Positions 47,188 through 64,000 are shown, numbered from the stretch's first letter. The stretch is DNA of 64,000 bases from Bacteroidia bacterium Ga0077558 (GCA_001464625.1 LNFJ01000094.1:22215-86214), one strand, 5' to 3'. Made by a program: numbers and translations. The notes: generated by a model not told the origin, from the letters alone.

Positions 47188-50100
47188 TTACCAAACAACC
47201 CAGTTAAATTCTATATTCTCTCTTCTTGAAACAGGTCGTTGTTTGCCTTTCGTTAATTCGCTAACCTTTTTACTAACATAGTTTTTTAACTCTGCTACAT
47301 CCACCCTTCTGTCAGCATTGCCACCATCCCTATCAGCCATCACTTCTTCTATTCCTTTTCGAATGCAATAAGTAAATACGCCATTGTTCCATTTTTCAGA
47401 TTCAAAAGCATATTCCATTCCACCGGCAGCAGAAATGACAATAGCACCATTACCTGCTGAAATATCTGCAAATAAATTTTGCATAACCTCATAAGAACTG
47501 TTAGCATCTACAGCTGCTTTTTTATCTTTTACAATAAGCCCTCTTGATGCAAATCCTGATACGGAGCCATTATCCGTAGCCGTATCTTTTATAGTCGTTA
47601 TCTTGTTTTGTTGCGCAAGCATCTCTTCCTTATCTAATGCACCGGAATGGCAAGCATCAATTAGCAATAATTTCTTTCTTGCAGGTATTCCATCCAGTAA
47701 GGCTTCCAGGTCTTCATACTTCAAACCTTTTTGAGTTGGCTTTTTAAAATCAATATCATACGTAGCATAATAAAAATCAAGACTATCGCTTAGTAAGCCA
47801 TGTCCATTTACGGAAATAATTACTTTGTCATTAACGGTCGTCTTCATTAATTTTTCCCGGAGAGCTAATATGTTTTCTTTAGTTGCACGACTATCAATCA
47901 ATGTATCTGCTTCAAAATTTGATTTAAATATTTTTCCGAAAGATGTAGCGAGGTCCCGAACATCTTTGGCCGCAAACCGAAGATTCATCGATGTGTCTTT
48001 ATAATTGGAAACAGCGATTCCAATAAAATAAGTTTTGGCAGGAGTGGGAGGTTTGTAGCTGCTGCTAATTTCTATTGTTTCTGTTAGGGAGATGGCACCT
48101 TTACTATTGGTGCAAAACACTTTCACTAGATTTTTATCTGTAGAAAGGGGCACTTTTACTTTCAGTGTAGTTCTATTTGCATTGCTTGAAATGACTTTTC
48201 CTGCTGTTCCAAAAACAGGGCTGTTATTTACCAAAACCTGTAGTGATTGCAGCGGATATTTTGCATCATAACATTCTATCTCCATTTCATACTCACTTAA
48301 TGATGTTGCGGGTTTTACTGTAAACCGATCTTTTAATCTAACAACGGGCAAATGAACATCATCACCTAATGAGCTTTCAGTAATATCCAGCTTCTTCAAT
48401 CTTTTTTTGTACGCAGCATAATAGGAAGTGATGAGGCTGCTATCTGCTCTGCCAAGTTGCTTCAATACTAGATCAGGCCTGTTAAAACGGGTATCAAACT
48501 GTTCAAAACCGTAACTGTTATTATTCAAATTGAACGTCACGGCATCTAAGGTATTTTTTGGAGCCAGGTAATTGCCTTTACTATCAGCGATCATAAAATC
48601 TTTGCCTCTGGGAGTAAAAATGGTTGCTATTTTATTGCCAGTAGCTAAATCATACATATTCACTTTACAATCAAAGCCACCGGTTGCTAAAGTTTTATTA
48701 TTATGGCTAATTGCCATCATCCCATTTTCATAGTCATGGTCGTACTTTTCGTAAAGCACTTTATCTGTTTTCGTATCGAGTGTAACAAACTTGTCGGCAA
48801 TTTGAACTACGAGATAGCGGTAGTCGTATGACATTACTGAGTTATAACAAAGCTTTTTGTCCTTATATACTTTTATTTTTTTCAATAATTTTAGCGTAGT
48901 CGCATCATATTTATATACTGCCCCATCTCCGCCAGGAACATAAATAAACTTTGGTGTTATTTCGAGTGTCAAAGCATCTTCTGTCATAATACTGTCCAGA
49001 ATATTTCCGTTTTTTACATCAATTATTACTATCCTGTTCAATATCTCTCTTGCAAAAAGTCTTTGCCGTATACTATCATACCTAAGTGCAGAATATCCTT
49101 TCAAAATTTTATTTTTACTTTTATTATAAACATGGCTAAATATTTTTTTATAAGTTGCCAGTTCAAACCCTGCAATCGTTCCGTTATCGCCTCCTAAAAA
49201 CACATATCGATTATCCGCTGACAATTCGAAATGGGTAAGCTTCTCCGTAGCATCGGGTAAGCTAACCTTGCCAACAAATTCTTTTTTTGTATAGTCGTAA
49301 AATTTAAGCGAAGGAAGCTCTGTATCTGTGTAAATCCCTATATTTTCATTATTAAGCAGTATATAATTATTTTGAAACGACAACGCACCGAAGTATAGGA
49401 ACGATGTGCTTCCATTTTTTAAATTCACTTTTGATACTCCGTCATGAACAATTGCCAGCTCATTGTCGTCTTTTGTAAATTGAATATTTAGCGGAAGAGT
49501 ATAATATGTTTTTATATCCTTATGGCTTAGAGAAGAATTAGATTCAAAATCCCAATTCGAAAAATTAAAAATGCGAATGGGGCCTCCATCAGCTAGTCGT
49601 CCCGCTAAGTAGTTGCCATCCGGGCTAAATTTAACATCAAAAAGTCCATAGCCATCAGCAGAGCTATATAGATAATTTCTTTCTTTTAAGGTTGCCAAGT
49701 TAATAATGCATAGACTATCGGCACCTAATGCTAGTGCAAGTGTTTTACTATCGGCACTAAATGAAGGTGTGGCATAAGTGCCCCAGGAGCCGTTGCTTTT
49801 TGCATGCGCTTTAATTCTAAAATATCTTTTTTTGTTTTCCAGGTCCCATACATTCACCAAGCTATCGGAAGTAAGACTGCACATATATTTTCCATTGTTG
49901 CTAACCCAAACACCTATTACCCTACTTCTTTCTTTGTACCGCCGGTCCCAGTCTCCTGTTTCTAAGTCCCATTTATATACCAAACTGTCAGATCCACATG
50001 AAAAAAGCACCGTACTATTTGCAGGCGAAAAGGCAAGCCCGGTTATGGAGGCATTGTGTACTTGCAGTAAAGTTTTTGCAATTGCACCAGTACTTATGTC

Positions 50101-51942
50101 GTAAAATTTAATTAATGAATCTCTTCCTCCGGCTACTAGTTGTTTACTATCCGGCGTAAATATTACAGCCATCTCTGGCCGCCTTGTATTTATTGTTTTA
50201 ATCAAAGAGTAATCATATGCATTCCATATTTTTATTGTGGAGTCGTAGGAAGAGCTTACCAGGTAACGTCCATTTGGACTATATTGTAAAGCATAAATAT
50301 CACTTGTGTGGGCCGTAAAAGTTGAAATTTCTCTACCCAATGTCACATCCCATATCTTAATAAATTTATCATAGATCCCACCAGTAGCCATAAATCTGGA
50401 GTTGGGCGAAATAGCAATGATATAAGGAAACAAATGTCCCGTTTGAACGGATACTTTTATTTGTTCACTGCTGCGGAGATTAGCAATAGCACTGATTGCC
50501 CATCCTTCGCCTTCTTTATTGCCTGATTGTATAAACTGTGCCAGCGATTTTTTGAAAGAACTATCAGCTTTTTTATAATTACCTAATTTTTTTTCGGTAA
50601 AGCCGGTAAGATAATTTGCCCATCCTTCATTCAGTTTATCATTTAAAGCAAAGCTGGCATCCTGAATCAACTGTGCCATGTATTGTGCAGAGTCTATATT
50701 GTCTGCATTTGCCATCAGCATACCTTCATTGAACCATCTTACAATAAGTTCGTTATCGGTAATATCTTTTGATAAATTTCCTGCCAATTTTTTTCTGATT
50801 ATAGAAGTTGGTTGTTTAATAAGAAAGGAACTAACCACTGCAGGATCCATAGGTGTATTATTAATAACCCAGGTGGCGTAAACTTCAGAAAATTTATAGG
50901 GTGTTCCCATATACTTTCTCGGAAATGCATTTACGAAATCTAAAAAGAGTTTTAAATGGTCATCTGTGCTATTGGCCATTGCCTTTATGATATTTTCTCC
51001 GGCAAAAATTCCTTTACTTCCTTTTACTTCTGCATAGCCACCGCCTGCAACAGTATCTTCTGCTAATATCCTTACCGCTTCATCAATCTGATTTTTCATT
51101 ATGCGGGCAATATCATTATTGGTAAGACTATCTGCATAGTAATACAAGTAGCGGGAATTATAAATCGGTTCCCGATAATTGTTTTGAAAATAAATTAAAC
51201 GATTTGCAGAAACACTAATAGCAAGATTTTTCCAGCTAACAGGTACTCTTGTTTTCAATTCAACCAAATCTCCGGGCAAAACTTGCAGTAAAGAATCATT
51301 AGTAGCATGTGCTATCGTGTAATTATTACCAACTTCCCTTGGATAACAGTTAACCAGTCCGTAGGGTCGTTGAACATCTTTTGATTCCCATTTTGAAATG
51401 ATGCCGCCTCTTTTTACCGAATCGGTAATTCCATCATATTTACCGGCTTGTATGGTAATACGAATTGAATCAGCAGAAATTACTTCCACTTTAGTGACCG
51501 GGTAAAAGATAGAGGTTTCTTCTGTTGCTGCAATTGCAGGATAGTTGAATAGCTGATTGTTAATACTGATGGAACGATGCAAATCATTTAATTCTATAAA
51601 AGCAGTTTCAATATCGATATCTATTCTGTTTGCACGGGACTGGCGTAGGGCAAAACTTAAAAATCGATGTGTATTTTCAGGATCTTCTTTTTTTTTGTAA
51701 CACCTTCCAATATTCAACATTACTTGTGCAGATAAAATATTGGTATAATTTTCCTGTTTGTTATTGCGAATCCATTGTAAAGCTCTAAGATTAATAACAA
51801 GCGATGAATCATAATTTTTAACAGCGTAAAAAGAATCAGCTTGAGAAACAAGGGAGTCCAGGTGTTTATATTCTTGTGCAGCGGCTTTTGGCAACAAAGC
51901 TGGCAGAAAAAGTAAGAAAATTATAAATCTGCCAATATGCAT
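47188..51942 (-). CDS. secreted multidomain protein: TPR-like N-terminus + WD40-type repeats + Ig-like linker + C-terminal caspase-like (C14) peptidase
   Basis: 1584 aa with signal peptide MHIGRFIIFLLFLPALLPKAAAQ. WD40-type units include FMATGGIYDKFIKIWDV, LVSSSYDSTIKIWNA and LVAGGRDSLIKFYDI. C14 blocks are YFIGIAVSNYKD, VIISVNGHG and LLLIDACHSG. Confidence 0.85.
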   Translation of the reverse strand: MHIGRFIIFLLFLPALLPKAAAQEYKHLDSLVSQADSFYAVKNYDSSLVINLRALQWIRNNKQENYTNILSAQVMLNIGRCYKKKEDPENTHRFLSFALRQSRANRIDIDIETAFIELNDLHRSISINNQLFNYPAIAATEETSIFYPVTKVEVISADSIRITIQAGKYDGITDSVKRGGIISKWESKDVQRPYGLVNCYPREVGNNYTIAHATNDSLLQVLPGDLVELKTRVPVSWKNLAISVSANRLIYFQNNYREPIYNSRYLYYYADSLTNNDIARIMKNQIDEAVRILAEDTVAGGGYAEVKGSKGIFAGENIIKAMANSTDDHLKLFLDFVNAFPRKYMGTPYKFSEVYATWVINNTPMDPAVVSSFLIKQPTSIIRKKLAGNLSKDITDNELIVRWFNEGMLMANADNIDSAQYMAQLIQDASFALNDKLNEGWANYLTGFTEKKLGNYKKADSSFKKSLAQFIQSGNKEGEGWAISAIANLRSSEQIKVSVQTGHLFPYIIAISPNSRFMATGGIYDKFIKIWDVTLGREISTFTAHTSDIYALQYSPNGRYLVSSSYDSTIKIWNAYDYSLIKTINTRRPEMAVIFTPDSKQLVAGGRDSLIKFYDISTGAIAKTLLQVHNASITGLAFSPANSTVLFSCGSDSLVYKWDLETGDWDRRYKERSRVIGVWVSNNGKYMCSLTSDSLVNVWDLENKKRYFRIKAHAKSNGSWGTYATPSFSADSKTLALALGADSLCIINLATLKERNYLYSSADGYGLFDVKFSPDGNYLAGRLADGGPIRIFNFSNWDFESNSSLSHKDIKTYYTLPLNIQFTKDDNELAIVHDGVSKVNLKNGSTSFLYFGALSFQNNYILLNNENIGIYTDTELPSLKFYDYTKKEFVGKVSLPDATEKLTHFELSADNRYVFLGGDNGTIAGFELATYKKIFSHVYNKSKNKILKGYSALRYDSIRQRLFAREILNRIVIIDVKNGNILDSIMTEDALTLEITPKFIYVPGGDGAVYKYDATTLKLLKKIKVYKDKKLCYNSVMSYDYRYLVVQIADKFVTLDTKTDKVLYEKYDHDYENGMMAISHNNKTLATGGFDCKVNMYDLATGNKIATIFTPRGKDFMIADSKGNYLAPKNTLDAVTFNLNNNSYGFEQFDTRFNRPDLVLKQLGRADSSLITSYYAAYKKRLKKLDITESSLGDDVHLPVVRLKDRFTVKPATSLSEYEMEIECYDAKYPLQSLQVLVNNSPVFGTAGKVISSNANRTTLKVKVPLSTDKNLVKVFCTNSKGAISLTETIEISSSYKPPTPAKTYFIGIAVSNYKDTSMNLRFAAKDVRDLATSFGKIFKSNFEADTLIDSRATKENILALREKLMKTTVNDKVIISVNGHGLLSDSLDFYYATYDIDFKKPTQKGLKYEDLEALLDGIPARKKLLLIDACHSGALDKEEMLAQQNKITTIKDTATDNGSVSGFASRGLIVKDKKAAVDANSSYEVMQNLFADISAGNGAIVISAAGGMEYAFESEKWNNGVFTYCIRKGIEEVMADRDGGNADRRVDVAELKNYVSKKVSELTKGKQRPVSRRENIEFNWVVW
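47191..48036 (-). other. caspase-like (peptidase C14) catalytic domain of the 1584-aa protein
   Basis: This is the last 282 residues. The His codon is at 47800-47802 and the Cys codon at 47650-47652; both were checked on the DNA. Confidence 0.8.
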
Positions 51943-52033
51943 CTTTTTTATTTTAGAAGTACAAATGTTGTAATGCTATGCCAATATATGGCCTTGCAAT
52001 CTATTTAACTATAGTGGCATTTTGTGCTTAAAA

Positions 52034-55000
52034 TCATTTTAACGTTTCTGTGGCTTTGTCAACTACAGACTTTGTAAGCTGATTCAATTTGTCTTTAGTG
52101 CCGCTTATTTCGAACTTAGTTTTTATAGCTTTATTTTGCTTCACATTTACAGTTATTGTAATGCCGTCTCCTTTTACAGTATAACGTCCACTTAAGGAAT
52201 AGGCATCAGGAGAATTAGTAGCAGTTACATATACAATTTTGCTATCTGATCCCCTTGTTGCCAATTCATTTAATTGGAGATTAACCATTCTGCTAAATTC
52301 CAAATCATCATCGGCAATAGCCTCATCGCTATTTTGAAAATTACTGGCAGCGAACAATGGTTTCTCTTGTGGCAAAATAATTTTAGCCATTACTTCCTCA
52401 TCAACCACCCCGATATTAAAATTGGTATTGGTAACAACTTGTGGTTCCTGTCTTGCACCATTTTCTTTTGAGAGCTCTGTCACTGTTTTTTCAGCGGCAT
52501 TAAACCAGCGGCTTACATTCAGGTATTTGCCATCTTCTAATATATCCGGTTGTTGCTTAATTGCTTTTAGTAAAGAATAGGTAAGTAGACCCTGCGAATA
52601 TCTCCCCATCTCATAGGCACTTTGATTACTTGCCGAAGCGGAGAGTATAAACAAACCAGATTTTTCATTTAGTTTATCTATTGCTTTTACCTGTTGCGCT
52701 GCATCATCATCTCTCGCTGCCATATAATTTTGCTCATCAGCACCCATTTTTACAAAATCTTTAATGGCTTGTCCACTATTGCAAGCATCAAATATTAGAA
52801 TACGTTTTTGAGCTTTTATATTTTGTGGCTTCATCCATTCGGTAAGTTCTGCCGTGCTGATGCCAACATCGGCAACCGCACTGCCAGCAGTTAAAGATGA
52901 AGCATCTGCGGTTAGAAAATAAAATTGCTTTTGTTCCCCTTCCATTACCCCATGACCTGCAAAGAATATCAGCAGAATATCATTGGCAGTAGCCTTTTTG
53001 CCTATTTCTTCCAGCGTTTTTTTGATACTGTTCTTTTCAGGTAGCTGGTATCTTTCTTTAGCGGTGGTGAGATTATACATAAACACATGTTCTTTATTAT
53101 CTGTGTTTAATAATTTTTTAGCTGCATTGGAAACCGCAGCAGAAATATCAGTAGCATCTTTAGCGGCATATTTCAGATCCAGTTCGTCTCCTTTGTAATC
53201 GCTTACGCCAACCATTACTGCATACAAGTTAGGTGGAGTAGTAGCCTGACTGCTTTTATCTTCTTTTACTTTAAATCCACGGGAGGATATTGTATTGTCT
53301 GTTGTAAATGCTTTTACTGTTACCTGGTTTTCTACACCAGCAATAAAATAAGGGCTGAGTTCAGTTTTTCTTATAATCAACTCATAGATGTTACCATTCA
53401 TTTTTAATTGTGCAGGCTTATATGTTTTGGTAGGATTTCCATTAATGGAAAGAATTGTTTCTCCCAATCCTCCGCGGCGGGGAATTATTTTAAAATAGTA
53501 TTCATCTGCTTTGCTGCTGGCATCTTCAATTTCAGGTGTAAGGCCACAAATACTTAACTGCTCTAATGTTTTTGCATTAATGCTATCGCCACTGGTAATC
53601 CTTTCAATTAGATTAGGAACCCACAATTGATTTTTTGCCTGGTCCAATTCTATCACTTCTTCTCCGCAAACAAAATAGAGCATTTTACGGGCAGCTTCAG
53701 TTCCATCATACCGTCCAAAATTATCTTGTACTAAAAAATCTGTATTGCCAGTAACAAAATGTTTGTAAGCCAATTTTACCTGGGGTAGTGTGTACACTTC
53801 CAATGCGTCATCAGTAAACACATAGAGATATTTGCCAGATTTTCCATATGTAATTTCATTGCCTTTAAGTTTTAGTACCGTTGCTCCTGATAATAAGTTG
53901 TGTATTCTAATATTGTCGCCAGAATGTACCACCAGGATTTCATTACTTACAAAATGAAACTCTATGCCTTTTCCTGGTTCATTGAGTTTTGTAACAATAG
54001 TTTCCTCAACATTGACTATAGGTGTTGTCACAATTTTCCCATTCGCATATATTAGTTTCAGTTCGTTTTTATTGGCTGTAAAACCAGCATAATTTATATC
54101 ACTCAAGGTTGTAACCAATTTTCCTGAAACTGTTTCCCAAACCTGCAAAAGTGATTCGTTGTTATCAAAACATAGGAAATATTTTGAGTCGGAGCTCATT
54201 TCTATGGTATGCGGATAAGCTGTTCCCACGGTAACGGATTGAATTAGCTCTTGAGTGGCTACCGACCAGATTTTTACTTTATTACTTCCTCCCGTAATAA
54301 TATACGCACCATCAGGACTGAACCGTTGTTCCGTAAACATGCTAATACTATCAATAGTCAACAACCGTTTATTGTCAGACAATCGAACAAGCTGCACTGT
54401 AAAATTATCATCGTGTAAAACATATTTTCCATTGGGGCTAAACTTGCTGAATGATTCATATGATCCTGATGCATCGCTTAGTGTTGTTTCATCACCCCCT
54501 TCTGCATTAAAAACAACACTACTGGCTCTTCCGCCTGCTACTACAAAAAGGCTATCATTAGCACTAAAATCTACACTGGTGGCCCACTGATTATTAAATA
54601 GTTTTTTGTGAAAAACAATTTTGCCAGTAGCTGCTTCCATTTTTCGTACTACACCATCTCTTGAAGCAGTCAAAATGTATTTTTCATCTTTAGAAAGTTG
54701 CAGCGCAGCGAGCCGTTCATTATGTGAACCATAAGTCAGTTCTTTTTTTCCTGTTGTGGCATTCCAACGGCTTAAAACAGGGTCGTAGTTTCCGGCAAGA
54801 ATGCTGTTGCTTTTTTTAAGATAGTTTAGAAAAAAGAGAGATTCATTTCCTGATTGGAAATAGAAAGCCAATTTATATGTATCAATATCCCAAACACTGC
54901 AATACCCACTTTTATCTGCAAGAGCAAAAGTTTTTTTGTCGGGAGAAACTCGTATTTTATAGATCCAGTCTTTATGGTTTTCTATAGCGCCAACAAAGTT

Positions 55001-55819
55001 GCCAGTCTGTTTATTCCATATCCTCGCAGAATTATCGCTGGATGAAGAAATTATATTACCATCGGGAAGAAATTTTGCATTCCAAACAGTATTCGTATGG
55101 CCGCTATACTCCACTAATTGTTTGCCGGTTGCAGTTTCCCAAAGCCTGGCTGTAGAATCATCTGCTGCAGTTAGTAATTCAATATCATTATCGGAAAATT
55201 CTACATCAATTACCCGGCTTCGATGGCCTGCGAGGGAAGCTGAAAATTTTCTTTGTTCTATGTCCCAAAGTTTTATGGTAGCACCTCCATACAAAGCAAG
55301 CATTTTACTATTGTTGCTAAACTTTAGTTCGTCATTAAAATAAGTCTGTGCAATGGTATCGGCTAATTGTAGAGTAATGGCGTTATATATTCTTATACTA
55401 GATCCACCTTTTTCGCCATAATATTGACCACAAATCGCAATCCATTTACCGTCTGTACTTACAGCAAGTCCCGGAGAGAAATCATAGGTCCCTAAAATTG
55501 TTGATTTGCCTGTTCCAATATTGTAGACTTCTGCAGGCGTAAAACCTGTAATAACAAGGTTCTTATTATCTGCAGTAAAGGCCATTTCGGTGGGATTACC
55601 ACGATTAAGGCTTGCTAATAATTTTCCGGTTGCCGTTTCCCATATTTTAATTTTTCCATCCAAATCACCCGAAGCAATTAATTTTTCATTTGGACTTATG
55701 GCAACAGCTTTAATCTCATTGCCATTAGCACTGGGGAGTATCAACTCGGGTTGTTGTGCCAATAAATGAGATATACAAAGCACACTACAAACCAGGGAAA
55801 TTAACTTGAAACCTCGCAT
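52034..55819 (-). CDS. secreted multidomain protein: WD40-type repeats + Ig-like linker + caspase-like (C14) peptidase + C-terminal beta-rich extension
   Basis: The start is placed at the ATG giving MRGFKLISLVCSVLCISHLLAQQ; the listed ORF start at 55864 is a TTG inside the promoter-like unit. WD40-type units include LIASGDLDGKIKIWETATGK, LLTAADDSTARLWETATGK and IISSSSDNSARIWNKQTG. C14 blocks are LYAVMVGVSDYKG, LLIFFAGHG and ILIFDACNSG. Confidence 0.85.
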   Translation of the reverse strand: MRGFKLISLVCSVLCISHLLAQQPELILPSANGNEIKAVAISPNEKLIASGDLDGKIKIWETATGKLLASLNRGNPTEMAFTADNKNLVITGFTPAEVYNIGTGKSTILGTYDFSPGLAVSTDGKWIAICGQYYGEKGGSSIRIYNAITLQLADTIAQTYFNDELKFSNNSKMLALYGGATIKLWDIEQRKFSASLAGHRSRVIDVEFSDNDIELLTAADDSTARLWETATGKQLVEYSGHTNTVWNAKFLPDGNIISSSSDNSARIWNKQTGNFVGAIENHKDWIYKIRVSPDKKTFALADKSGYCSVWDIDTYKLAFYFQSGNESLFFLNYLKKSNSILAGNYDPVLSRWNATTGKKELTYGSHNERLAALQLSKDEKYILTASRDGVVRKMEAATGKIVFHKKLFNNQWATSVDFSANDSLFVVAGGRASSVVFNAEGGDETTLSDASGSYESFSKFSPNGKYVLHDDNFTVQLVRLSDNKRLLTIDSISMFTEQRFSPDGAYIITGGSNKVKIWSVATQELIQSVTVGTAYPHTIEMSSDSKYFLCFDNNESLLQVWETVSGKLVTTLSDINYAGFTANKNELKLIYANGKIVTTPIVNVEETIVTKLNEPGKGIEFHFVSNEILVVHSGDNIRIHNLLSGATVLKLKGNEITYGKSGKYLYVFTDDALEVYTLPQVKLAYKHFVTGNTDFLVQDNFGRYDGTEAARKMLYFVCGEEVIELDQAKNQLWVPNLIERITSGDSINAKTLEQLSICGLTPEIEDASSKADEYYFKIIPRRGGLGETILSINGNPTKTYKPAQLKMNGNIYELIIRKTELSPYFIAGVENQVTVKAFTTDNTISSRGFKVKEDKSSQATTPPNLYAVMVGVSDYKGDELDLKYAAKDATDISAAVSNAAKKLLNTDNKEHVFMYNLTTAKERYQLPEKNSIKKTLEEIGKKATANDILLIFFAGHGVMEGEQKQFYFLTADASSLTAGSAVADVGISTAELTEWMKPQNIKAQKRILIFDACNSGQAIKDFVKMGADEQNYMAARDDDAAQQVKAIDKLNEKSGLFILSASASNQSAYEMGRYSQGLLTYSLLKAIKQQPDILEDGKYLNVSRWFNAAEKTVTELSKENGARQEPQVVTNTNFNIGVVDEEVMAKIILPQEKPLFAASNFQNSDEAIADDDLEFSRMVNLQLNELATRGSDSKIVYVTATNSPDAYSLSGRYTVKGDGITITVNVKQNKAIKTKFEISGTKDKLNQLTKSVVDKATETLK
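52421..53230 (-). other. caspase-like (peptidase C14) catalytic domain of the WD40-caspase protein
   Basis: The His codon is at 52952-52954 and the Cys codon at 52781-52783, both checked on the DNA. A further ~120-aa unassigned C-terminal domain is encoded at about 52037-52390. Confidence 0.8.
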
Positions 55820-55833: not shown

Positions 55834-55880
55834 AAAAATTACCACTATTAGCATGCTTTTCCAATACCGTATGCAGGGTA
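55834..55880 (-). promoter_or_regulatory. promoter-like unit B (TACC-N8-GGTATTGG-N19-TAATTTTT)
   Basis: The minus strand reads TACCCTGCATACGGTATTGG aaaagcatgctaatagtgg TAATTTTT, ending 15 nt before the ATG at 55819. Units A and C have the same geometry. Confidence 0.55.
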
Positions 55881-55907: not shown

Positions 55908-55938
55908 AAAAAAACCGGCTATATTAGCCGGTTTTTTT
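55908..55938. terminator. bidirectional Rho-independent terminator after the small Tyr/Trp/Cys-tail gene
   Basis: aaaaaaaccggct / agccggttttttt: a perfect stem with a 5-nt loop, flanked by A and T runs. Confidence 0.8.
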
Positions 55939-55947
55939 GTAATTCGA

Positions 55948-56331
55948 TTAACAGTAGTACCAATATTTGTACCAGTAGCAATAGCCATAGCCATCGCAAT
56001 AGTAATACCAATAGTAGCAAAGTCCGGCACGGGATGCTTCCGGAGCTTTATACTTTTTTTGAAAAGCTTTTACTGCAGCAGCAAGTGATTTTGCATTAGC
56101 AGCTGTCAATGTTTGACCGGCTTTGTAAGTTGTTCCGCCAACTGTAGCTTCAGGAGAACCGCCACGGTTTGCGTCAAGACTCGCATTAGATACCATGCTT
56201 AAAAAGCCGATATCGCTGTCAGTTAAAGTTGTGCCTGCCTTCATAGCAGATACTGTTTTTTCTGCCTGGCCAAATACTACTGATGCCATCAGCAGCAAAG
56301 AGGCCGAGAATAAGAGTTTAATCTTTTTCAT
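55948..56331 (-). CDS. small secreted protein with extreme Tyr/Trp/Cys-rich C-terminal tail
   Basis: 127 aa with signal peptide MKKIKLLFSASLLLMASVVFGQA. The tail LCYYWYYYCDGYGYCYWYKYWYYC was verified codon by codon at 55951-56019. The gene has its own terminator and an upstream promoter-like unit. Confidence 0.6.
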   Translation of the reverse strand: MKKIKLLFSASLLLMASVVFGQAEKTVSAMKAGTTLTDSDIGFLSMVSNASLDANRGGSPEATVGGTTYKAGQTLTAANAKSLAAAVKAFQKKYKAPEASRAGLCYYWYYYCDGYGYCYWYKYWYYC

Positions 56332-56526
56332 TGTTGTTTTTTGTAGGTGATGAAATTTGATGGTTTTTAAATATATGCTTTTTTAGCAGATAAAAAATTG
56401 GACTGTTTATTCAAACAGGTTATTAAAAAGTAAATTTATTTGTCTTATCCGATCTTACCAATACTCTATTTTGAGTAGTCGCTTTAACTGTTTGGGTAAA
56501 GTTTTTCTATTTCATTTATTCTTACA

Positions 56527-56573
56527 TAAAGTTAGTAGTGGAATAACCTGTTTTCAATACCCAATAGCAGGTA
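56527..56573 (-). promoter_or_regulatory. promoter-like unit C (TACC-N8-GGTATTGA-N19-TAACTTTA)
   Basis: The minus strand reads TACCTGCTATTGGGTATTGA aaacaggttattccactac TAACTTTA. It lies 20 nt downstream of the stop of the 744-aa gene and about 195 nt upstream of the small-protein ATG. Confidence 0.45.
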
Positions 56574-56593
56574 TTTATTACCAGGGGTTAAAA

Positions 56594-58828
56594 TTATTTT
56601 TCTTTTGTAGGGATGAAAATAAATTCACTAAAGGCGTCTGTATTTCCAAAATCGGCCATATGAGGCGATATTTTTAGGGTAGCGGTTTCATTGAGGCTGG
56701 CGGTCTGCAATACAGCATTAATATCGCCCAATGTAACAATACCGTTGGAACCTTCACCTTTTGCCCGTAGCACCTGTAACAGAAGGTTGGCAAACGGCGA
56801 ATGGCGGCCAGCTTTACCATCAAATGCAGGTTCGCTGCCGACAGAGGATAAAAATTTTCGGGTACGGAGCGGTAATTTATCTTTTAAAAACTGCAGCACA
56901 TTTTTATTATTTATATTGGTAGTGGTTGTTTCCCTTTTTGCATTGTCAAAAGCTTTGGCATCAAAAGTGCCGCCGTGGCAAACATCCAGCAACACCAGTA
57001 CCTGCCTGGCTGGAATATTATTCAGCATTTTTTGCAGCTTGGCATAGGGGATATAGGTGTTACGAACCGGGTCGTCATCAATTGACCGGGAGTCTGTACA
57101 AACTATAAAACCATCATCCAGCAATTCATTATCCACATCACCGTGGCCAGCAAAATAAACCACCAGTTGATCATTAGGTTGTGCAATACGATAGTATTCC
57201 CTGATGGCCTTATAAATACTGTCCATGGGTTTGTCTTCTAATAATTGTACATCAAAGCCGTAGGAGTTGGATAATTCATCAGCTACTGCACGGGCATCTT
57301 TTATAGGGTTGCTGAGTTTATTCCATCCTTTGCCTTTATAATTATCGGTACCTACAACAAGGGCATATTTTTTGGCGGTCAGATTAGTTAATGTTTGCTG
57401 AAGTTCCTTTGGTTTTACCTTCATTCCTCTAGTGTCACTCTCTCCATCACCAAATATTTCTTTGTAATCCTGCAAAAATTTTTTCTCAAAGAAAATATCA
57501 AAATAGTCGTAGGGGAACGACTTGCAGGTATATTCTTTATCTTTTATAGAGAAAGCTATTTTTGCTGCCTTGCTATCATCTCGGAATATATCATAAATGT
57601 TGTACGTGGTATCCAATGAAGTTATATAATAATTAATAGGACCTTTCCTGATGGTTTCTCCATTACACCCTACAGCATCCATCCCAATACGATTGGGGAA
57701 AATGATAATACGGTTTTTGTTGAGAAGACTTGCAACAGTAGGAGAGTTTCTCATTAATGTTTTTACAAACTCAGTTTTAAACTTTTCTTCAGTACCAGTT
57801 TCGGAAATAAAGAGTTGATTATTAGCAGGTATAATCTGGATGTACTCTTGGAGGACGTTTATTGAAATAAGATCATGGTTAATTTCCTCAATAAGATCTT
57901 TATGCTTACTGCTATTTCCAAAGAGTTCTCTTTTGTAGCCTTTTTTTTGGTAGGGGAAAAAATAGGTAACCTTGTTACTGCTTGAGTCGAGCACAAGAGG
58001 AAAACTATGGCCGTTATAATTCAGAATAAAATAATCATTTGCCGAAGATTTAGCGGCGATCTCCTTTAACGCATTAATAATTTTTTCTTTTGTGGCACCA
58101 CTATCAAGCAATGTATATTCATTATATAAAGTTTCGGAAATCTCATTACCAACCACTTTATCTAGCTGCTCTTTAAAAAAAGTTGAATAGGACTGGGCAT
58201 CGGACTTGCAGTTTGTCAAATACATAAGGGCGCCTGAATATTTATCAATACCAATTGATAATACCCAAACTGAACCGATGGAGTATTTATTTCTGTCTGA
58301 GGCATTGTATACTTGGTTAAGTCTTAGCAATGATGATAGTGATCTATTGGGAACATTCGATTCTTTAATTTTTTGCCCATAATTAAGGATAAATTTATCG
58401 ATTACCTTCTTAGAATCATAAGTGACAATTTTCATCAGGGTGTTGTTAAGAACATAAGCCTGATCGGTAAGTTGAAATTCATTATCAAACTGCCATACGC
58501 TATCAATTGAAATAGTGTTTTTGAAAATCAACCTGTATGCTTTTACTCCACCCCTTGTAGAGTCTATAAAGCCTTTCAAGTTGATTATAGTATCATTTTT
58601 TATAAATTTTTCCATCCATTTAGCGGACGAATAATACATGCCAGTACCAACAATATAAATTTGGGAAGGGTTGTGTTTTTTTAATGTTTCCGGATATTGA
58701 TGTGCTGCCAACACATAAGTTGTAGGTCTTAGAACACCAGGATTTCCTAAAGAATAATTACTGAAAAACAACCCGTTAACCAGTAATATGGCAACCACAA
58801 GGTTCGCTTTACAAATATGTAAATTCAT
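56594..58828 (-). CDS. secreted protein with degenerate caspase-like module followed by an intact caspase-like (C14) peptidase domain
   Basis: 744 aa with a hydrophobic leader. The C-terminal C14 blocks are YALVVGTDNYKG, LVVYFAGHG and VLVLLDVCHGG. The upstream module has WVLSIGIDKYSG and FILNYNGHS, but reads LFISETGTEE where the Cys block is expected. Confidence 0.8.
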   Translation of the reverse strand: MNLHICKANLVVAILLVNGLFFSNYSLGNPGVLRPTTYVLAAHQYPETLKKHNPSQIYIVGTGMYYSSAKWMEKFIKNDTIINLKGFIDSTRGGVKAYRLIFKNTISIDSVWQFDNEFQLTDQAYVLNNTLMKIVTYDSKKVIDKFILNYGQKIKESNVPNRSLSSLLRLNQVYNASDRNKYSIGSVWVLSIGIDKYSGALMYLTNCKSDAQSYSTFFKEQLDKVVGNEISETLYNEYTLLDSGATKEKIINALKEIAAKSSANDYFILNYNGHSFPLVLDSSSNKVTYFFPYQKKGYKRELFGNSSKHKDLIEEINHDLISINVLQEYIQIIPANNQLFISETGTEEKFKTEFVKTLMRNSPTVASLLNKNRIIIFPNRIGMDAVGCNGETIRKGPINYYITSLDTTYNIYDIFRDDSKAAKIAFSIKDKEYTCKSFPYDYFDIFFEKKFLQDYKEIFGDGESDTRGMKVKPKELQQTLTNLTAKKYALVVGTDNYKGKGWNKLSNPIKDARAVADELSNSYGFDVQLLEDKPMDSIYKAIREYYRIAQPNDQLVVYFAGHGDVDNELLDDGFIVCTDSRSIDDDPVRNTYIPYAKLQKMLNNIPARQVLVLLDVCHGGTFDAKAFDNAKRETTTTNINNKNVLQFLKDKLPLRTRKFLSSVGSEPAFDGKAGRHSPFANLLLQVLRAKGEGSNGIVTLGDINAVLQTASLNETATLKISPHMADFGNTDAFSEFIFIPTKEK
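56597..57373 (-). other. intact caspase-like (C14) domain of the 744-aa protein
   Basis: The His codon is at 57143-57145 and the Cys codon at 56978-56980, both checked on the DNA. Confidence 0.8.
57629..58273 (-). other. degenerate caspase-like module (catalytic Cys apparently lost)
   Basis: Residues ~186-400 show the same block order as a C14 domain (IGIDKYSG ... NYNGHS ... hydrophobic strand). There is no Cys at the position aligned by eye. Confidence 0.45.
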
Positions 58829-58844
58829 AGTTGCTAATTTCCTG

Positions 58845-58891
58845 AAAAGATATAACTATAAAGACATTCTTTCAATACCCAGCAGAGGGTA
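58845..58891 (-). promoter_or_regulatory. promoter-like unit A (TACC-N8-GGTATTGA-N19-TATCTTTT)
   Basis: The minus strand reads TACCCTCTGCTGGGTATTGA aagaatgtctttatagtta TATCTTTT, ending 17 nt before the ATG of the 744-aa gene. Confidence 0.55.
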
Positions 58892-58921
58892 CATTATCTT
58901 CTGCAAACTATATTATCTTTA
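58888..58921 (+). promoter_or_regulatory. possible divergent promoter sharing the palindrome of unit A (GGTACATT-N18-TATCTTTA)
   Basis: On the plus strand the right arm of the TACC-N8-GGTA palindrome is followed, after 18 nt, by TATCTTTA (58914-58921). This lies upstream of the caspase-TPR gene. Confidence 0.35.
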
Positions 58922-58986
58922 GCTATAATAAAAAGGTTCAGGCAACTTCTTTTGGCCGTATAATGTCTGAGAAAGGTATTTTAATA

Positions 58987-61449
58987 ATGAAACGGAATAG
59001 CATTTTCATATTATTGTTTTTATTGGGCTGTTTTTTGCAGGCCATGGCACAGCCTGATGAACGGGGTTTTAAAAAAGCAGGCGATACCGCAACAGCAAAG
59101 GGTAATGTATATGCTATTATCGTAGGCATCAGCGATTATAAATTGGTACCCGATCTACAGTATGCAGATAAAGATGCACAATCATTTGAAAGTTTTCTAC
59201 TGAGTGATGGCGGCGGCAAAGTGCCGGCCACCAATATTGAAACGTTTTTGAATGAAAATGCAACCCGTACCAATGTGGGAGATGCCATTTCGGTATTGGC
59301 CCGTAGGGCCAAACCTGGCGACAGGGTGTATTTCTTTTTTGCCGGGCATGGTGATATGGAAGATCTGACTCAAATTGAAAATGGATTGTTACTATTACAC
59401 AATAGTCCCAATGGAAATTATTTTGGTATGAATGATGATGTGCTGGAAATTTTAGATCTAAAAAGATATTTATCTCCATTAGCACAGCGGGGAGTTGAAA
59501 TGATATTTATTGTGGATGCCTGCCACTCCGGGAATTTAAAAGGTGGGGTAGAAGGAGTGTCACAAACAGCATCTGCCCTTACCGCTGCTTGGGGCAAAGA
59601 GTATAAAATTCTTTCTTGCCAACCCAATCAGCTTTCCCTGGAGAGCTCCGAGTGGGGTGGAGGCAGAGGCCTTTTTTCGTTGCAACTGGAAGAAGGATTG
59701 AAAGGCCTAGCAGATATGGATAATAATGGAACGGTTAGCATGTTTGAATTACAGAGCTATATTCAATCCAATGTGGCAAAATATAGCGAGGGAAAACAAA
59801 TTCCCTTAGTTACCGGCGATTTAAGTAAACCAATTTGTAAAGTTAACCCTACCATACTTGCAGCACTAAAATTAGAAAAGGCTAAGAATTATCCCATACT
59901 TGCATCTGCTAATACAAAGGGTAATGATGATAAATATGTTGATTCGCTGGACCCTGCCGGGAAGAAATTATATGCGTCTTTTAAAAATAATATTGCCGAA
60001 AAAAGGTTGGTCGCACCAACAGATACCAATGCATTCAGGGATTATCGTTTGTTTGAAAAAAGCTATCCGGCCAGTCCGCTTGTAGTACAGATGCGGCGCA
60101 ACCTCGCTGCCGTATTAAATGAGAAGTTTAATGGCATTGTATCTCCTTTATTAAAAGGACAAAGAAGCTATTCTTCAAGGGAAGAATGCGGATTGGTGGC
60201 AGTCGAACTGGATAGTTCGATGCAATTACTCGGTAGCCAGCATTATATGTACACCAACATTAAAGCCCGCAAATTATTCATGGATGCGATGGCTCTTACC
60301 TGGGCCTTATCGGAGAATGAATATAATATCTATATGAAGCCTGCGGTAGAAACATCAATCAAGTTGTTGGAACAATCGGAACTATTGGAGCCGAATGCAG
60401 CTTATACTTTGGATGCATTAGGCATTCGTTATATATTCTTGTATGAGAATGATAAAGCAACAAAAGCTTTTCAAAAATACCTTGATCTGCGGCCCAATGA
60501 TTTAATGGCTCGTTATACCTTGGGTATTACTTATACAAACTTAAAAATGTATGATAATGCAGAAAAAATATTTGAAGAGCTTTTGAAAGAAAATCCGGGA
60601 TGGCTGGAGCTAGGAGTAAAATTGTCAGATGTTTATCTTAACAACAAAAAGTCTAAAAACGCATTAGCTATTATCAATACAATTATCGATACCTCTACTT
60701 TATATAAGGGGAATGGATATTTTTTTAAAGGAGTGTACTATTCCAGGAATAGTATGACGGACAGTGCCATCTACTATTACAATCTTGCTAAAAAGGAAAT
60801 GGGGGCTTGTGATATTTGCGATAATAACATCGGGCATAATTATTTTGTGAATAACCAGTTGGACTCTGCCAGGAAATATTTCAAAAAACTTTTGGAGATT
60901 GATAGCCTGAATGTGTTTGCCAATTTTAATATGGGTACCATTGAAGTATTGGAAGGTGATATAACTAAAGCTTTTCAGTCATTCGTTAAATCGGCCGTAT
61001 ATGCACCTGCATTTCTGGAAGGTTATGTAAATAATCTTCAACTATATTTTGGTAAAACATATACAGCAACAGACGAAAAGGAGTTTAAACAATTTAAAGA
61101 AATACAGTATATTTTTAATATGCAGTACTTGTCCTACTTATCTATCTTGTATGGATATATTCGGGATTCTGCATTGTTGTATAAAGGAACCGGGGTGCAG
61201 TATTTTTTTGATCAGGCCTTTGTTTATAAACAACATGATTTGTACACATGGTATCATCATGCCTGTTACAAATCGCTAATAAAAGAAAAGCAGGCTGCAT
61301 TGGCAAGTTTGGAAAATGCGTTACGTCTTGGCTATGGAAATTATTTTACACTTCTATATGATGCGGATCTTTCATTTATTCGCAATACTCCGGAGTTTAA
61401 AAAACTCATCCAGAAATATTTCCCCAAAGAATCTGCTGCTGCTAATTAA
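58987..61449 (+). CDS. secreted caspase-like (C14) peptidase fused to C-terminal TPR repeats
   Basis: The start is placed at MKRNSIFILLFLLGCFLQAMAQ; an upstream ATG at 58963 is also possible. C14 blocks are VYAIIVGISDYK, VYFFFAGHG and IFIVDACHSG. TPR-like 34-mers run from about residue 430 to 720, e.g. AFQKYLDLRPNDLMARYTLGITYTNLKMYDNAEKIFEELLKENP. Confidence 0.85.
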   Translation: MKRNSIFILLFLLGCFLQAMAQPDERGFKKAGDTATAKGNVYAIIVGISDYKLVPDLQYADKDAQSFESFLLSDGGGKVPATNIETFLNENATRTNVGDAISVLARRAKPGDRVYFFFAGHGDMEDLTQIENGLLLLHNSPNGNYFGMNDDVLEILDLKRYLSPLAQRGVEMIFIVDACHSGNLKGGVEGVSQTASALTAAWGKEYKILSCQPNQLSLESSEWGGGRGLFSLQLEEGLKGLADMDNNGTVSMFELQSYIQSNVAKYSEGKQIPLVTGDLSKPICKVNPTILAALKLEKAKNYPILASANTKGNDDKYVDSLDPAGKKLYASFKNNIAEKRLVAPTDTNAFRDYRLFEKSYPASPLVVQMRRNLAAVLNEKFNGIVSPLLKGQRSYSSREECGLVAVELDSSMQLLGSQHYMYTNIKARKLFMDAMALTWALSENEYNIYMKPAVETSIKLLEQSELLEPNAAYTLDALGIRYIFLYENDKATKAFQKYLDLRPNDLMARYTLGITYTNLKMYDNAEKIFEELLKENPGWLELGVKLSDVYLNNKKSKNALAIINTIIDTSTLYKGNGYFFKGVYYSRNSMTDSAIYYYNLAKKEMGACDICDNNIGHNYFVNNQLDSARKYFKKLLEIDSLNVFANFNMGTIEVLEGDITKAFQSFVKSAVYAPAFLEGYVNNLQLYFGKTYTATDEKEFKQFKEIQYIFNMQYLSYLSILYGYIRDSALLYKGTGVQYFFDQAFVYKQHDLYTWYHHACYKSLIKEKQAALASLENALRLGYGNYFTLLYDADLSFIRNTPEFKKLIQKYFPKESAAAN
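59104..59832 (+). other. caspase-like (C14) catalytic domain of the caspase-TPR protein
   Basis: The His codon is at 59347-59349 and the Cys codon at 59521-59523, both checked on the DNA. Confidence 0.8.
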
Positions 61450-61562
61450 AAGTAGCTTAGCACCTTGCTAATAATTTCATTAAGGTTTATTTAACTGCGT
61501 CACAAGTGTAATTTCGGTTACAACAGTATCTTCTTGTGTATAAACACACCAAAAGCACTGTT

Positions 61563-62096
61563 ATGAAACGTTATACTTCTCTTCTTATAGTATTTTTACT
61601 TTCTTATTCAATAAGCTTCGCAGATGAAATTGCCTTTGAAAAAAATGCCAGCTGGGCAGATGTAAAAGCCAAGGCTAAACGGGAGAACAAAATGATATTT
61701 TTTGATGCCTATACTGCCTGGTGTGGCCCTTGTAAATACCTGGAAAAAAATGTGTATACAGATGCAGGCGTAGCTGCTTATTACAACCAATACTATATAA
61801 GCGTAAAGTTTGATATGGAAAGGGGAGAAGGTATAGAGTTGGCTAAAGAATTTTCTATTGACTCATACCCTACATTATTATTTTTTACTGCAGATGGCAA
61901 ACTGGTTCATAAATATATAGGAGCAACTGATGTGGCAGGGTTTAAAAGCCTTGGTGAAAATGCGGCAGATCCTTCTAAACAATATATAGTAATGAAGGAG
62001 CAGGCTGCCAGTTTAGCATTAGCTGATGCTGCATTTACCAAATGGGCATTCCAGGCAGAAAGGTTACAAGATGGGAGATATAGGGAAAATCATTAG
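61563..62096 (+). CDS. thioredoxin-fold protein (secreted), possibly the N-terminal part of a frameshifted longer gene
   Basis: The start is placed at MKRYTSLLIVFLLSYSISFA. The motif is FFDAYTAWCGPCKYLE (CGPC). The ORF ends in a helical segment that continues in the +1 frame (see findings). Confidence 0.75.
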   Translation: MKRYTSLLIVFLLSYSISFADEIAFEKNASWADVKAKAKRENKMIFFDAYTAWCGPCKYLEKNVYTDAGVAAYYNQYYISVKFDMERGEGIELAKEFSIDSYPTLLFFTADGKLVHKYIGATDVAGFKSLGENAADPSKQYIVMKEQAASLALADAAFTKWAFQAERLQDGRYRENH

Positions 62097-62757
62097 GACA
62101 TACTTAGCAGGAAAGGATGATCTTCTTGCCAATAGAGATGTAGCTATTACCGCATTGTTGCAGGCGCCAGAACTTACCGACACTCAGTTGAATTATTTAA
62201 TAAATAATCCTGCCCGAATCGGCGAATTGTTGAAGCTTGATGCCCCGCAAACCGCTTCTTTGTTATACAAAAGAATTTTTAACCAGGCAATGACTGTTTA
62301 CCAAAGAAGCGGCCAGCAAGTAGATTCTTTTGCCATAGTTATACAAAAATATGCTCCTGCAAATTGTGAGTATGCAATGAAAGATATGTTGTTTAAAGAA
62401 GCTTTGCGGGCCGATAAAGATATAAATAAGGCAACTGCTTTATTAATAGAATATATTGATGATAAGAAAGCTCCCGTAGACATTGCAGCAATAGCTGGTT
62501 GGTTTGAGGAATTATCGGCAGTGATTGATAAAGAAAATTCACAACGGTTAATTAATAAGCTTACCAGTTTTGTATTACAGGAAAGTGATAAAGGAAAAGA
62601 ATGCTATCTGTTCCTTATTCAAATGAGTTGCTATAATACTATTGGCGACAAGGCTCAGGCAAAAACGTATGCTTTGAAAGCTTATCATGCTAAAGAATTG
62701 CCAGAAGAATATAAGGAAATGCTTAAAGCAACATGGGGCTTTACTGATTCTCAATAA
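62071..62757 (+). CDS. helical (TPR-like?) protein, or the C-terminal part of the upstream thioredoxin-fold gene
   Basis: The ORF is open from 62026 and the first plausible ATG is at 62071 (MGDIGKIIRTYLAGKDD). It overlaps the upstream ORF by 26 nt in a different frame. Composition is all-helical. Confidence 0.5.
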   Translation: MGDIGKIIRTYLAGKDDLLANRDVAITALLQAPELTDTQLNYLINNPARIGELLKLDAPQTASLLYKRIFNQAMTVYQRSGQQVDSFAIVIQKYAPANCEYAMKDMLFKEALRADKDINKATALLIEYIDDKKAPVDIAAIAGWFEELSAVIDKENSQRLINKLTSFVLQESDKGKECYLFLIQMSCYNTIGDKAQAKTYALKAYHAKELPEEYKEMLKATWGFTDSQ

Positions 62758-63086
62758 TCCAGGTCATAATGAATTGCTCATTAGCTACACTATTATAAAT
62801 ACCCATAAATGGGTATAGTTTTCCGCTTATTTAGCAGCTAAATTGTGTAAATAATGAAATCTTCAAAAACAGCTGGCTTATTTAATACAAAAAGGAAAGT
62901 AACTTTTTTTTCGGGGTATACAACTTTTCAGACTCTGATCCAATCAATACTAGCGGTTCGCAGGATTATGTTGGTTGTTGTCCCCAAAACACTTTATATT
63001 AGTACTTAACCAGTCTCTCAGATGGTTTTTACAAATAAAGGCATTAAAATCGTAAAAAGTAACCACCAATCTCTAAAATAAAGGCA

Positions 63087-64000
63087 ATGTCAAAACATTT
63101 TATTATCACTGCATTGGCTCTCGTTATTACCAGCCTTGCCATGGCGCAAGAAAAAAGAGCACTTATTATTGCTATCGATCAGTATGAGCCACCAACAAAT
63201 TATAAACCCGCCAGTACTGCAAGGTCAAATTTCAGAAATTTAGATGGTTGTGTAAATGACGGCCGTTCTATGCAATCTGTTATAGTTTCCAAATTTCAAT
63301 TTGATGCAGGCAATGTGGATACCTTGTATAACGATGCTGCAAACAGAGCTGCCATTCTTAAATCAATGAATGATTTATTAGCTGAAAGTAAAGCCAATGA
63401 TATTGCGTTTATCTATTATGCCGGACACGGAAGCCAGGTGCCTAACAGCCTTGCAAAGGAAGCAGATAAAAAAGATGAATCAATGGTGCCTAGTGATACC
63501 TATAAAGAAGGAGTGGAGGACATCCGGGATAAAGAACTGGCTAAAATCTTTAATGCTTTTATAGATAAAGGAGTAAAGCTAACGGTGATAATGGACTGCT
63601 GTCATAGTGGATCACTTTCCCGTGGTCCAAATGCTCCCGGTAAATCAAGGTTTATTGCTGATGCAAACTATGATGCTAAAGATGCTTCACAACCAGTGCC
63701 GCCAGAAACAAGATCAGAAGGAAATTTTCTTATAATCTCTGCAGCACAGGATAATGAATTTGCACAAGAGCAGCGGGATGAAAATAATATTCCCCGTGGC
63801 GCCTTCACTATTGCTTTAACCCAGGCTTTGGAACAACAATCTGTAAATGCATCGGTAATAAATTTATTTACCAGTTTGCGGGCCATTTTAAAAAGTAATG
63901 GAAAGAAACAAGAACCTGTATTGGCCGGTAAGCCAGAAAGACAACAACAAACATTGTTTGGTATTGAAAAAGGAACTCTTCCGGATAAATCATTAGTTGC
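63087..64000 (+). CDS. secreted metacaspase-type (C14) peptidase, 3' end cut by window edge
   Basis: This gene is not in the ORF track because no stop codon falls inside the window. My translation is MSKHFIITALALVITSLAMAQEKRALIIAIDQYE...IAFIYYAGHGSQ...LTVIMDCCHSGS... The His codon is at 63426-63428 and the Cys codon at 63600-63602. Confidence 0.8.
   Translation, partial: MSKHFIITALALVITSLAMAQEKRALIIAIDQYEPPTNYKPASTARSNFRNLDGCVNDGRSMQSVIVSKFQFDAGNVDTLYNDAANRAAILKSMNDLLAESKANDIAFIYYAGHGSQVPNSLAKEADKKDESMVPSDTYKEGVEDIRDKELAKIFNAFIDKGVKLTVIMDCCHSGSLSRGPNAPGKSRFIADANYDAKDASQPVPPETRSEGNFLIISAAQDNEFAQEQRDENNIPRGAFTIALTQALEQQSVNASVINLFTSLRAILKSNGKKQEPVLAGKPERQQQTLFGIEKGTLPDKSLV

Follow-up and report, generated by a model that had tools for sequence, protein, structure and literature searches.

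Exported metacaspase-like proteases of Chitinophagaceae, probably periplasmic, are clustered with small Arg-Gly proteins and share an upstream DNA element

Caspase homologs of bacteria have been described as fusions with WD40 or TPR repeats, with possible N-terminal signal peptides, as pseudo-variants and as members of operons of up to three genes, Bacteroidetes included (PMC3501461, PMC5756287, PMC6426788). Here we compare with these systems a locus in a 64,000-nucleotide stretch of DNA (hereafter the window) from Bacteroidia bacterium Ga0077558, a bacterium of Chitinophagaceae from soil or wastewater. The original prediction, made from the sequence of the window, saw at its end an island of five secreted caspase-like (C14) proteases forming an extracytoplasmic proteolytic module. 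The five open reading frames (ORFs) are present: C1 (47188..51942), C2 (52034..55819) and C3 (56594..58828) on the minus strand, and C4 (58987..61449) and C5 (63087..>64000) on the plus strand. C5 is truncated by the end of the window, and the island runs past it: the source contig (our locus L001) holds the full-length C5 of 746 residues, a small-protein gene S2 and a further protease gene C6 (both within L001 659-3380), so that the true count is six C14 genes and a second small protein joins the S1 protein encoded between C2 and C3. The idea of an extracytoplasmic module is supported by the leader peptides of the proteins, by their linkage across species and by a conserved cis-element shared among the genes. 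Our reading, to which we give an even chance, is that the locus encodes a conserved, co-regulated and probably periplasmic set of anciently diverged, metacaspase-like, Arg-specific proteases that would process one another or themselves together with S1 and S2.

The island proteases resemble the bacterial orthocaspases (C14B; for instance MaOC1 of Microcystis and GSU0716 of Geobacter, PDB 3bij) in their p20-type fold, in the His/Cys dyad, in acidic S1-pocket residues that imply Arg/Lys specificity, and in the fusion to WD40 or TPR repeats, the pseudo-enzyme variants, the several genes per genome and the occasional operons. They differ in that all members are Sec-exported, six diverged paralogs stand together with a dedicated cis-element, and the proteases are accompanied by two families of small Cys-rich exported proteins and a periplasmic thioredoxin. 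The DxCHSG motif, the GHG motif and the helix-alpha1 Asp are common to the island and the eukaryotic type I metacaspases (Yca1, TbMCA2, AtMC9/AtMC4), but the eukaryotic enzymes are cytosolic, lack signal peptides and carry other accessory domains. Our survey of the published literature on these themes found no description of the combination of an exported paralog set, a cis-element, small Arg-Gly proteins and a tandem protease like C3.

Membership in the C14 family is evident for every protease of the island. C1 to C5 score 50.4, 53.2, 105.6, 65.2 and 102.4 bits with the Pfam Peptidase_C14 profile (PF00656; gathering cut-off 21.4 bits), full-length C5 and C6 reach 99 and 51 bits, and no further match to the C14 profile was found among the other ORFs of the 64-kb window. 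As predicted, the His and then the Cys signature block occur once each and in the correct order in all five ORFs of the window, and the catalytic codons were located in the DNA; the original observation stands, well above what chance would give. The GHG and DxC(H/N/F)(S/G)G motifs can be aligned across all six proteases as well as with YSGHG/DSCHSG, the catalytic motifs of Yca1. The His, the Cys and an Asp that precedes the Cys by two residues do not vary among the orthologs examined (C1 4/4, C2 9/9, C3 40/40, C4 22/22 and C5 25/25). The nearest sequences of solved structure are the metacaspases Yca1, AtMC9, AtMC4 and TbMCA2 (E-values 1e-13 to 1e-10) and also Geobacter GSU0716. The C14 fold is thus backed by profile hidden Markov models (HMMs) for all five proteins and, for C3 only, by structure comparison: an AlphaFold (AF2) model of C3, with a predicted local distance difference test (pLDDT) of 76 and a predicted template modelling score (pTM) of 0.66, matches GSU0716, MALT1, metacaspases and caspases (Foldseek probability 1.0, E about 3e-8). 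In the alignment all six proteases have an Asp on helix alpha1 (KD, ND or AD) and the Asp that precedes the Cys by two residues, and these match the positions of Asp95 and Asp211 in TbMCA2, the proposed S1-pocket residues of that enzyme (PMC4357240). By these sequence features we class the island enzymes as metacaspase-like, of the C14B type; given this family and the conserved acidic S1-pocket residues, cleavage after Arg or Lys would be expected.

The domain architectures are diverse, and profile searches agree with the fusions first proposed and place WD40 repeats in the two largest proteins, TPRs in C4 and a degenerate C14 copy in C3. C1 (1584 residues) has a signal peptide, an N-terminal region of about 480 residues, WD40 beta-propellers at about residues 490-1150, an Ig-like region and a C-terminal C14 domain at 1309-1574, with its dyad at His1381 (codon 47800-47802) and Cys1431 (codon 47650-47652). 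C2 (1261 residues) consists of a signal peptide, WD40 propellers at about residues 14-700, an Ig-like region, a C14 domain at 866-1132 (His956 and Cys1013, the latter in the motif DACNSG) and a C-terminal tail of 120 residues; its start is likely the ATG at 55819, since a start at the TTG (55864) would directly adjoin the upstream motif described below. In C3 (744 residues) the signal peptide is followed by a beta-rich N-terminal domain (about residues 33-150), a pseudo-C14 domain that lacks the Cys (about residues 187-460; window positions about 57449-58270), a disordered linker and an active C14 domain (486-744; His562 and Cys617). The Cys-less copy is detected independently at about residues 187-343, with an E-value of 4e-13 against an HMM built without that copy. 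Pseudo-variants of cyanobacteria are of the Tyr/Ser type, whereas the pseudo-domain of C3 has no Cys and is fused in tandem to an active domain. The C14 domain is N-terminal in C4 (820 residues; domain 42-281, His121 and Cys179), where a signal peptide precedes it and a TPR array follows at about residues 454-810, and likewise in C5, which has a signal peptide, His114, Cys172 within CHSGSLSRGP and, towards the C-terminus, a region that matches DUF4384 weakly. C6 (708 residues) combines TPR-like and Ig-like regions with a C14 domain whose Cys motif reads DACFSG.

All six proteases, and also S1, S2 and the thioredoxin encoded in the island, begin with a basic n-region, a hydrophobic core of 10-14 residues and a small-residue cleavage motif. 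Most leaders place a Gln at position +1 (KAAA|QE, LLA|QQ, FG|QA, AMA|QP, AMA|QE, ASA|QK and ATS|QS), which fits the Q-rule for signal peptidase I substrates of Bacteroidetes, with Gln directly after the cleavage site (PMC5837995, PMC10653852), and the leaders of C4 and S1 are kept in the orthologs. Beyond the leaders, no additional hydrophobic segments were found in the exported island proteins, and no island protein matches the type IX secretion C-terminal domain (Por_Secre_tail, PF18962/TIGR04183). Leaders without a detected type IX domain support export to the periplasm and not release from the cell; of the claim that the proteases are secreted, export across the inner membrane by Sec-type leaders is therefore supported and secretion out of the cell is not. 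The island proteases are accordingly best regarded as exported and probably periplasmic.

The linkage of these genes is conserved. Full-length relatives of C3 number more than 120 (38-71% identity), and all named ones belong to Chitinophagaceae or Ferruginibacter; the exact C3 sequence was found on two contigs, one of 35 kb from a metagenome and one of 1.8 Mb. When species-representative genomes were scanned, 79 loci were obtained and annotated by BLAST against the island proteins and by a C14 HMM. Linkage was counted within a 10-kb radius in those 21 Chitinophagaceae loci where the C3 ortholog is full-length and flanked on each side by 5 kb or more. At least one further C14 gene lies near C3 in 21/21 of these loci, at least two in 15/21 and at least four in 8/21, and the genes are thus not scattered among relatives. 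An ortholog of C4 or C5 accompanies C3 in 20/21 loci, followed in frequency by S2 (13/21), S1 (11/21), the thioredoxin (7/21), C2 (5/21), C1 (2/21) and C6 (0/21). In the closest genome, that of Chitinophagaceae bacterium IBVUCB2, the genes follow one another as they do here, an extra WD40-C14 gene is present, the thioredoxin is intact (395 residues) and C6 is missing. The conserved assembly reaches up to six or seven exported paralogs. We conclude that the module is real and has a core of C3 plus C4 or C5 with a variable periphery.

The six catalytic domains share only 22-31% pairwise identity and no DNA repeats were found between the island genes, which indicates ancient paralogs that were retained together and rules out recent tandem duplication. 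An origin from a mobile element was likewise considered, and no tRNA gene, flanking repeats or shift in guanine-cytosine (GC) content was found at the island. It could be argued that genes of unrelated function have merely piled up at a permissive locus, as the variable island composition might suggest and as C6, with no ortholog elsewhere and no copy of the shared element, might exemplify. We hold this to be highly improbable, since such deeply diverged paralogs are adjacent in every one of the 21 genomes and have the same conserved upstream element, which occurs nowhere else in the window.

This element confirms and extends the shared promoter-like motif noticed at first: the upstream regions carry a common 16-bp sequence, TACC-N8-GGTA, with the extended consensus aaATACCCnctnnagGGTATtg, which is conserved across species. 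Sites with exact spacing number four in the 64-kb window, every one of them between island genes. They are found at 55865..55880 (minus strand), 46 nucleotides upstream of the C2 ATG; at 56558..56573 (minus strand), 227 nucleotides upstream of the S1 start; at 58876..58891 in the divergent C3/C4 region, 48 nucleotides from the ATG of C3 and 96 from that of C4; and at 62800..62815 (plus strand), 272 nucleotides upstream of the C5 start. A position weight matrix (PWM) built from other species only scores these sites at 26.2, 29.2, 25.1 and 22.2, respectively, and they alone in the window (22-29) exceed the shuffle maximum of 16.7. A fifth site lies ahead of S2, beyond the window in L001. The element is found ahead of island genes in about 40 species, and of 141 exact sites in 1.41 Mb of related loci, 103 fall in the 400 bp that precede an island-family gene.

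The element stands at a nearly fixed distance (44-51 nucleotides) from the start codons of C3, C2 and C1, and 27/98 sites are followed after 23-24 nucleotides by a TAnnTTT[GT] box, which we take to be a weak Bacteroidota-type promoter (-7). The element would then sit at about -46 to -31 of a weak promoter, a position that suits an activator or operator site. A reading of the repeat as an RNA hairpin was ruled out, because the half-sites are conserved in sequence rather than covarying, and the fifth positions show no covariation; the element is thus a DNA site. In the island studied here C1, the thioredoxin gene and C6 have no element of their own, and the likely transcription units are C3, S1, C2-C1, C4-thioredoxin, C5 and S2. 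A generic sigma-70 promoter scan was uninformative (67 sites against 64 expected). S1 homologs away from caspase genes, downstream of PadR and PspC-domain (toast-rack) genes, also keep the element (L084 9902-9917; L085 4776-4791), which ties S1 to the same regulon. The operators of PadR have a layout of 4 bp, N8-10 and 4 bp (PMC3506622); PadR was not adopted as the regulator, as PadR promoters bear a different repeat and lack the element. Few element sites in the related loci are outside islands, and one of them precedes a lipoprotein family of about 330 residues. Lipoprotein-like genes of this kind (about 325-331 residues) were seen in six related loci (for example L021 602-1576), and the one in L031 has a TACC-N8-GGTA site at 14717, 70 nucleotides upstream, and may be an extra regulon member.

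The small Tyr/Trp/Cys-tailed protein that had been noticed at 55948..56331 (S1; minus strand) is a real ORF with a leader. Its 127 residues comprise a signal peptide, a small alpha/beta domain, a linker with an invariant Arg101 and a tail of 25 residues, GLCYYWYYYCDGYGYCYWYKYWYYC. The tail (CYYWYYYC-DGYG-YCYWYKYWYYC) has four invariant Cys and is predicted to form a beta-hairpin, and the model of S1 (pLDDT 81) shows a small alpha/beta domain, a coil linker and the C-terminal hairpin. S1 has 132 close relatives, the named ones in Chitinophagaceae or Ferruginibacter, and its family forms 61 clusters among 1.84 billion representative proteins. S2 (131 residues) is exported and encoded 3' of C5; its C-terminal beta-rich domain contains Cys in most, not all, orthologs. 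Neither protein matches a Pfam or PADLOC family, the S1 family has no descriptive name, and the S1 model found no fold match in the PDB (best Foldseek E 2.4).

Cysteine protease genes with small co-encoded partner proteins are known from staphopain-staphostatin and SpeB-Spi. The island resembles them in that the gene for a small beta-rich protein stands immediately 3' of a protease gene, with S2 following C5 and S1 following C3. In contrast to the staphostatin and Spi inhibitors, S1 and S2 are exported and have no sequence or fold match, and their conserved Arg-Gly site resembles a substrate more than an inhibitor.

This Arg-Gly motif recurs across the island proteins. In S1, Arg101 stands just before the Cys-rich tail and does not vary among 36 sequences, the sole disordered loop contains another Arg-Gly (R56-G57), and divergent family members retain (S/T)RG or a basic residue at both sites. 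In S2, (S/P)RG occurs right before the C-terminal beta domain in 25/25 orthologs. The linker between the pseudo- and active domains of C3 contains (Q/K)TRG(L/M)K (TRG at residues 466-468; Arg in 39/40 and Gly in 40/40 orthologs), and linker residues 460-472 have a pLDDT below 50, as expected for disorder; the C3 and S1 sites thus both fall in low-confidence or coil segments of the models. C2 has ISSRG at residue 846, just ahead of its C14 domain (9/9), C4 has ERG five residues past the predicted signal cleavage site (Arg in 22/22), C5 has SRGP five residues after the catalytic Cys (25/25), and C1 has ASRG at residue 1466, also after the catalytic Cys (4/4). Altogether [ST]RG occurs 8 times in 6121 island residues and 3 times in 14239 residues of other window proteins, an enrichment of about 6-fold. 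The only biochemically studied orthocaspase, MaOC1, requires autoprocessing after Arg for activity (PMC5756287), and the simplest reading of the Arg-Gly motifs is hence a common processing site.

Following this reading, the proteases would cut after Arg or Lys at (S/T/E)-Arg-Gly motifs, which would serve as processing sites in the disordered linkers and domain borders of C1-C5 and ahead of the C-terminal domains of S1 and S2. The proteases would thereby activate themselves or each other and mature S1 and S2, and cleavage of S1 would release its disulfide-stapled, Tyr/Trp-rich hairpin. The WD40 and TPR arrays, together with the polymorphic N-terminal half of C3, may select partners, and the exported WCGPC thioredoxin may keep catalytic thiols reduced or handle the disulfides of S1 and S2 in the oxidising periplasm. 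Candidate physiological outputs, among which we make no choice, are envelope remodelling, lysis or antagonism. A more specific version is that periplasmic proteases cut at (S/T)-Arg-Gly in a maturation pathway that frees the 25-residue hairpin of S1 and the beta domain of S2 as bacteriocin-like, adhesive or signalling products, with the N-terminal half of C3 and the WD40/TPR arrays setting specificity; this we offer tentatively and think unlikely.

Several observations weigh against the processing scheme. The Arg-Gly motif was noticed post hoc, its conservation is no proof of cleavage, and in C6 it lies inside an Ig-like fold and may be structural. S1 and S2 are missing from minimal C5/C3 islands, and S1 can be far from any C14 gene (in L085 none lies within 10 kb of the S1 homolog), so that the linkage of the small proteins is only partial. 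C6 has neither the shared element nor an ortholog in other islands. The thioredoxin gene is frameshifted here and missing from most related islands. No regulator gene conserved beside the islands was found, as clustering of all flanking ORFs gave housekeeping neighbours only. Finally, the signal peptides were called by a rule-based, heuristic check.

The thioredoxin gene (61563..62757, plus strand) had been listed as a member of the island, and a profile match confirms the fold; the gene is, however, split by a 1-nucleotide frameshift near 62066-62076, at a short G run, into the overlapping frames 61563..62096 and 62026..62757 (overlap 62026-62096). Its product would have a signal peptide, the WCGPC motif and a helical C-terminal domain of about 220 residues. 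Orthologs are intact at 392-395 residues, but in the close relative represented by L012 the gene is split as well; the frameshift may represent a real pseudogene or an assembly error. Being frameshifted here and present in 7/21 islands only, the thioredoxin is not essential to the module.

The original prediction had also ordered the proteases, with repeat-bearing members as sensing initiators and shorter members as downstream enzymes, and nothing in our data supports such tiers. In its fuller form this idea would be an extracytoplasmic caspase-like cascade in which WD40/TPR members act as initiators that activate shorter executioners, for example in envelope-directed programmed cell death. 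The repeat domains are real, the genes have a regulatory element in common, and conserved Arg-Gly at domain borders fits trans-activation. Moreover, a CHASE2 protein and CHAT-domain proteins, one of which has 2371 residues and both ankyrin and WD40 repeats, adjoin related islands or S1 genes (L004 1297-9940; L084 1-4530) in more distant Chitinophagaceae, and the CHASE2 sensor and CHAT protease genes in the related island L004 would suit a cascade. We nevertheless regard it as unlikely. The Arg-Gly motifs fit auto- or cross-processing but give no hierarchy, conservation is highest for C3 together with C4 or C5 and not for the WD40 members (C1 2/21, C2 5/21), and no lytic effector was identified. 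Metacaspase-type enzymes, moreover, are typically active as monomers and process themselves (PMC4357240, PMC5756287).

C3 is a mosaic. In the active C-terminal domain it shares 92-100% identity with the closest genomes (L019 and L012), but in the N-terminal 470 residues (57400-58828) only 33-65%, and there it is nearer to the L005 lineage. Identity of the remaining island proteins to L019 and L012 is 82-98%, save for about 70-73% over the C-terminal portion of the thioredoxin. This pattern suggests that the non-catalytic half of C3 was swapped by allelic replacement between close strains. Since replacement by a divergent allele is common in conflict systems, and island gene content varies among genomes, one may ask whether the locus serves in phage defence or conflict as a caspase-effector system, in which infection triggers proteolysis and abortive death. 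Weak matches to the PADLOC 'caspase' and the NCBIfam EACC1-associated caspase models point the same way.

The resemblance to STAND/NLR caspase systems (caspase-NACHT-WD40/TPR and EACC1-associated) is limited to the caspase-like domain and the WD40/TPR arrays; the island has no nucleoside triphosphatase (NTPase) domain or EACC1, and its signal peptides place the proteins outside the cytoplasm, where they would miss cytoplasmic phage components. The NCBIfam model NF047832 gives 50-88 bits, well under its 140-bit cut-off, and the PADLOC matches are weak or partial; membership in both was rejected on these grounds. No EACC1 or NTPase gene was found near the island, no Pfam or NCBIfam match to NACHT/NB-ARC was found in the island proteins or the neighbours from 33-47 kb, no CHAT or cas match appeared among the window genes tested with Pfam and NCBIfam, neighbours included, and no gasdermin gene is adjacent. 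These profile searches agree with the earlier statement that the window lacks a STAND NTPase, CHAT, cas or gasdermin gene. With the stable chromosomal position of the island added, which shows none of the tRNA, repeat or GC signs mentioned above, a conflict system appears very improbable.

Bacteroidota export many clan CD proteases, and the island enzymes could, like others of these peptidases, serve nutrient acquisition as secreted enzymes of digestion or surface processing. Their export would agree with this, as would the papain-like exported protease that adjoins the island. We consider the proposal quite improbable, however: the island has no type IX C-terminal domain and no SusC/D-type partner, enzymes of bulk digestion do not usually carry large WD40/TPR arrays and a pseudo-protease domain, and a dedicated shared operator with cognate small proteins indicates a specific pathway. 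The adjoining region (42404-44510) encodes a membrane-anchored protease of the papain family (peptidase family C1) with a weak DUF4384 match and then an exported CxxC thioredoxin-like protein. By its sequence it is a putative second extracytoplasmic pairing of a Cys protease with a thioredoxin, just upstream of the island, and as such it speaks for our main reading.

The left border of the island is a GC-rich strong hairpin with T-runs at 47159-47182, which resembles a bidirectional terminator and lies between C1 and a convergent gene for a DUF4136 lipoprotein (46553-47131). Within the island a second hairpin, resembling an intrinsic terminator, is found directly after the S1 stop codon, between S1 and C2 (55908..55931, minus strand; CCGGCT AATAT AGCCGG followed by a T-run). 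It was read straight from the sequence and had been missed by the automated scan, probably as its stem extends into A/T runs. On the far side, past the window end, an acetyltransferase gene follows C6 on the source contig. Elsewhere in the window we observed an ORF of 2028 residues on the minus strand at 9573-15659.

Although caspase homologs abound in bacteria, a substrate or a role is known for almost none of them, and published discussion focuses on cytoplasmic functions in cell death or defence. The locus described here offers a tractable case, with conserved exported enzymes, a regulon-defining element and neighbouring candidate substrates that have a precise predicted cleavage site. If the proposed processing is true, extracytoplasmic caspase-like proteases would for the first time become approachable through their substrates, and a lineage common in soil and wastewater would be seen to export a new family of small products rich in Cys and aromatic residues; if the maturation pathway were also true, ribosomal peptide products would arise here by a new route, in which caspase-family enzymes act outside the cytoplasm.

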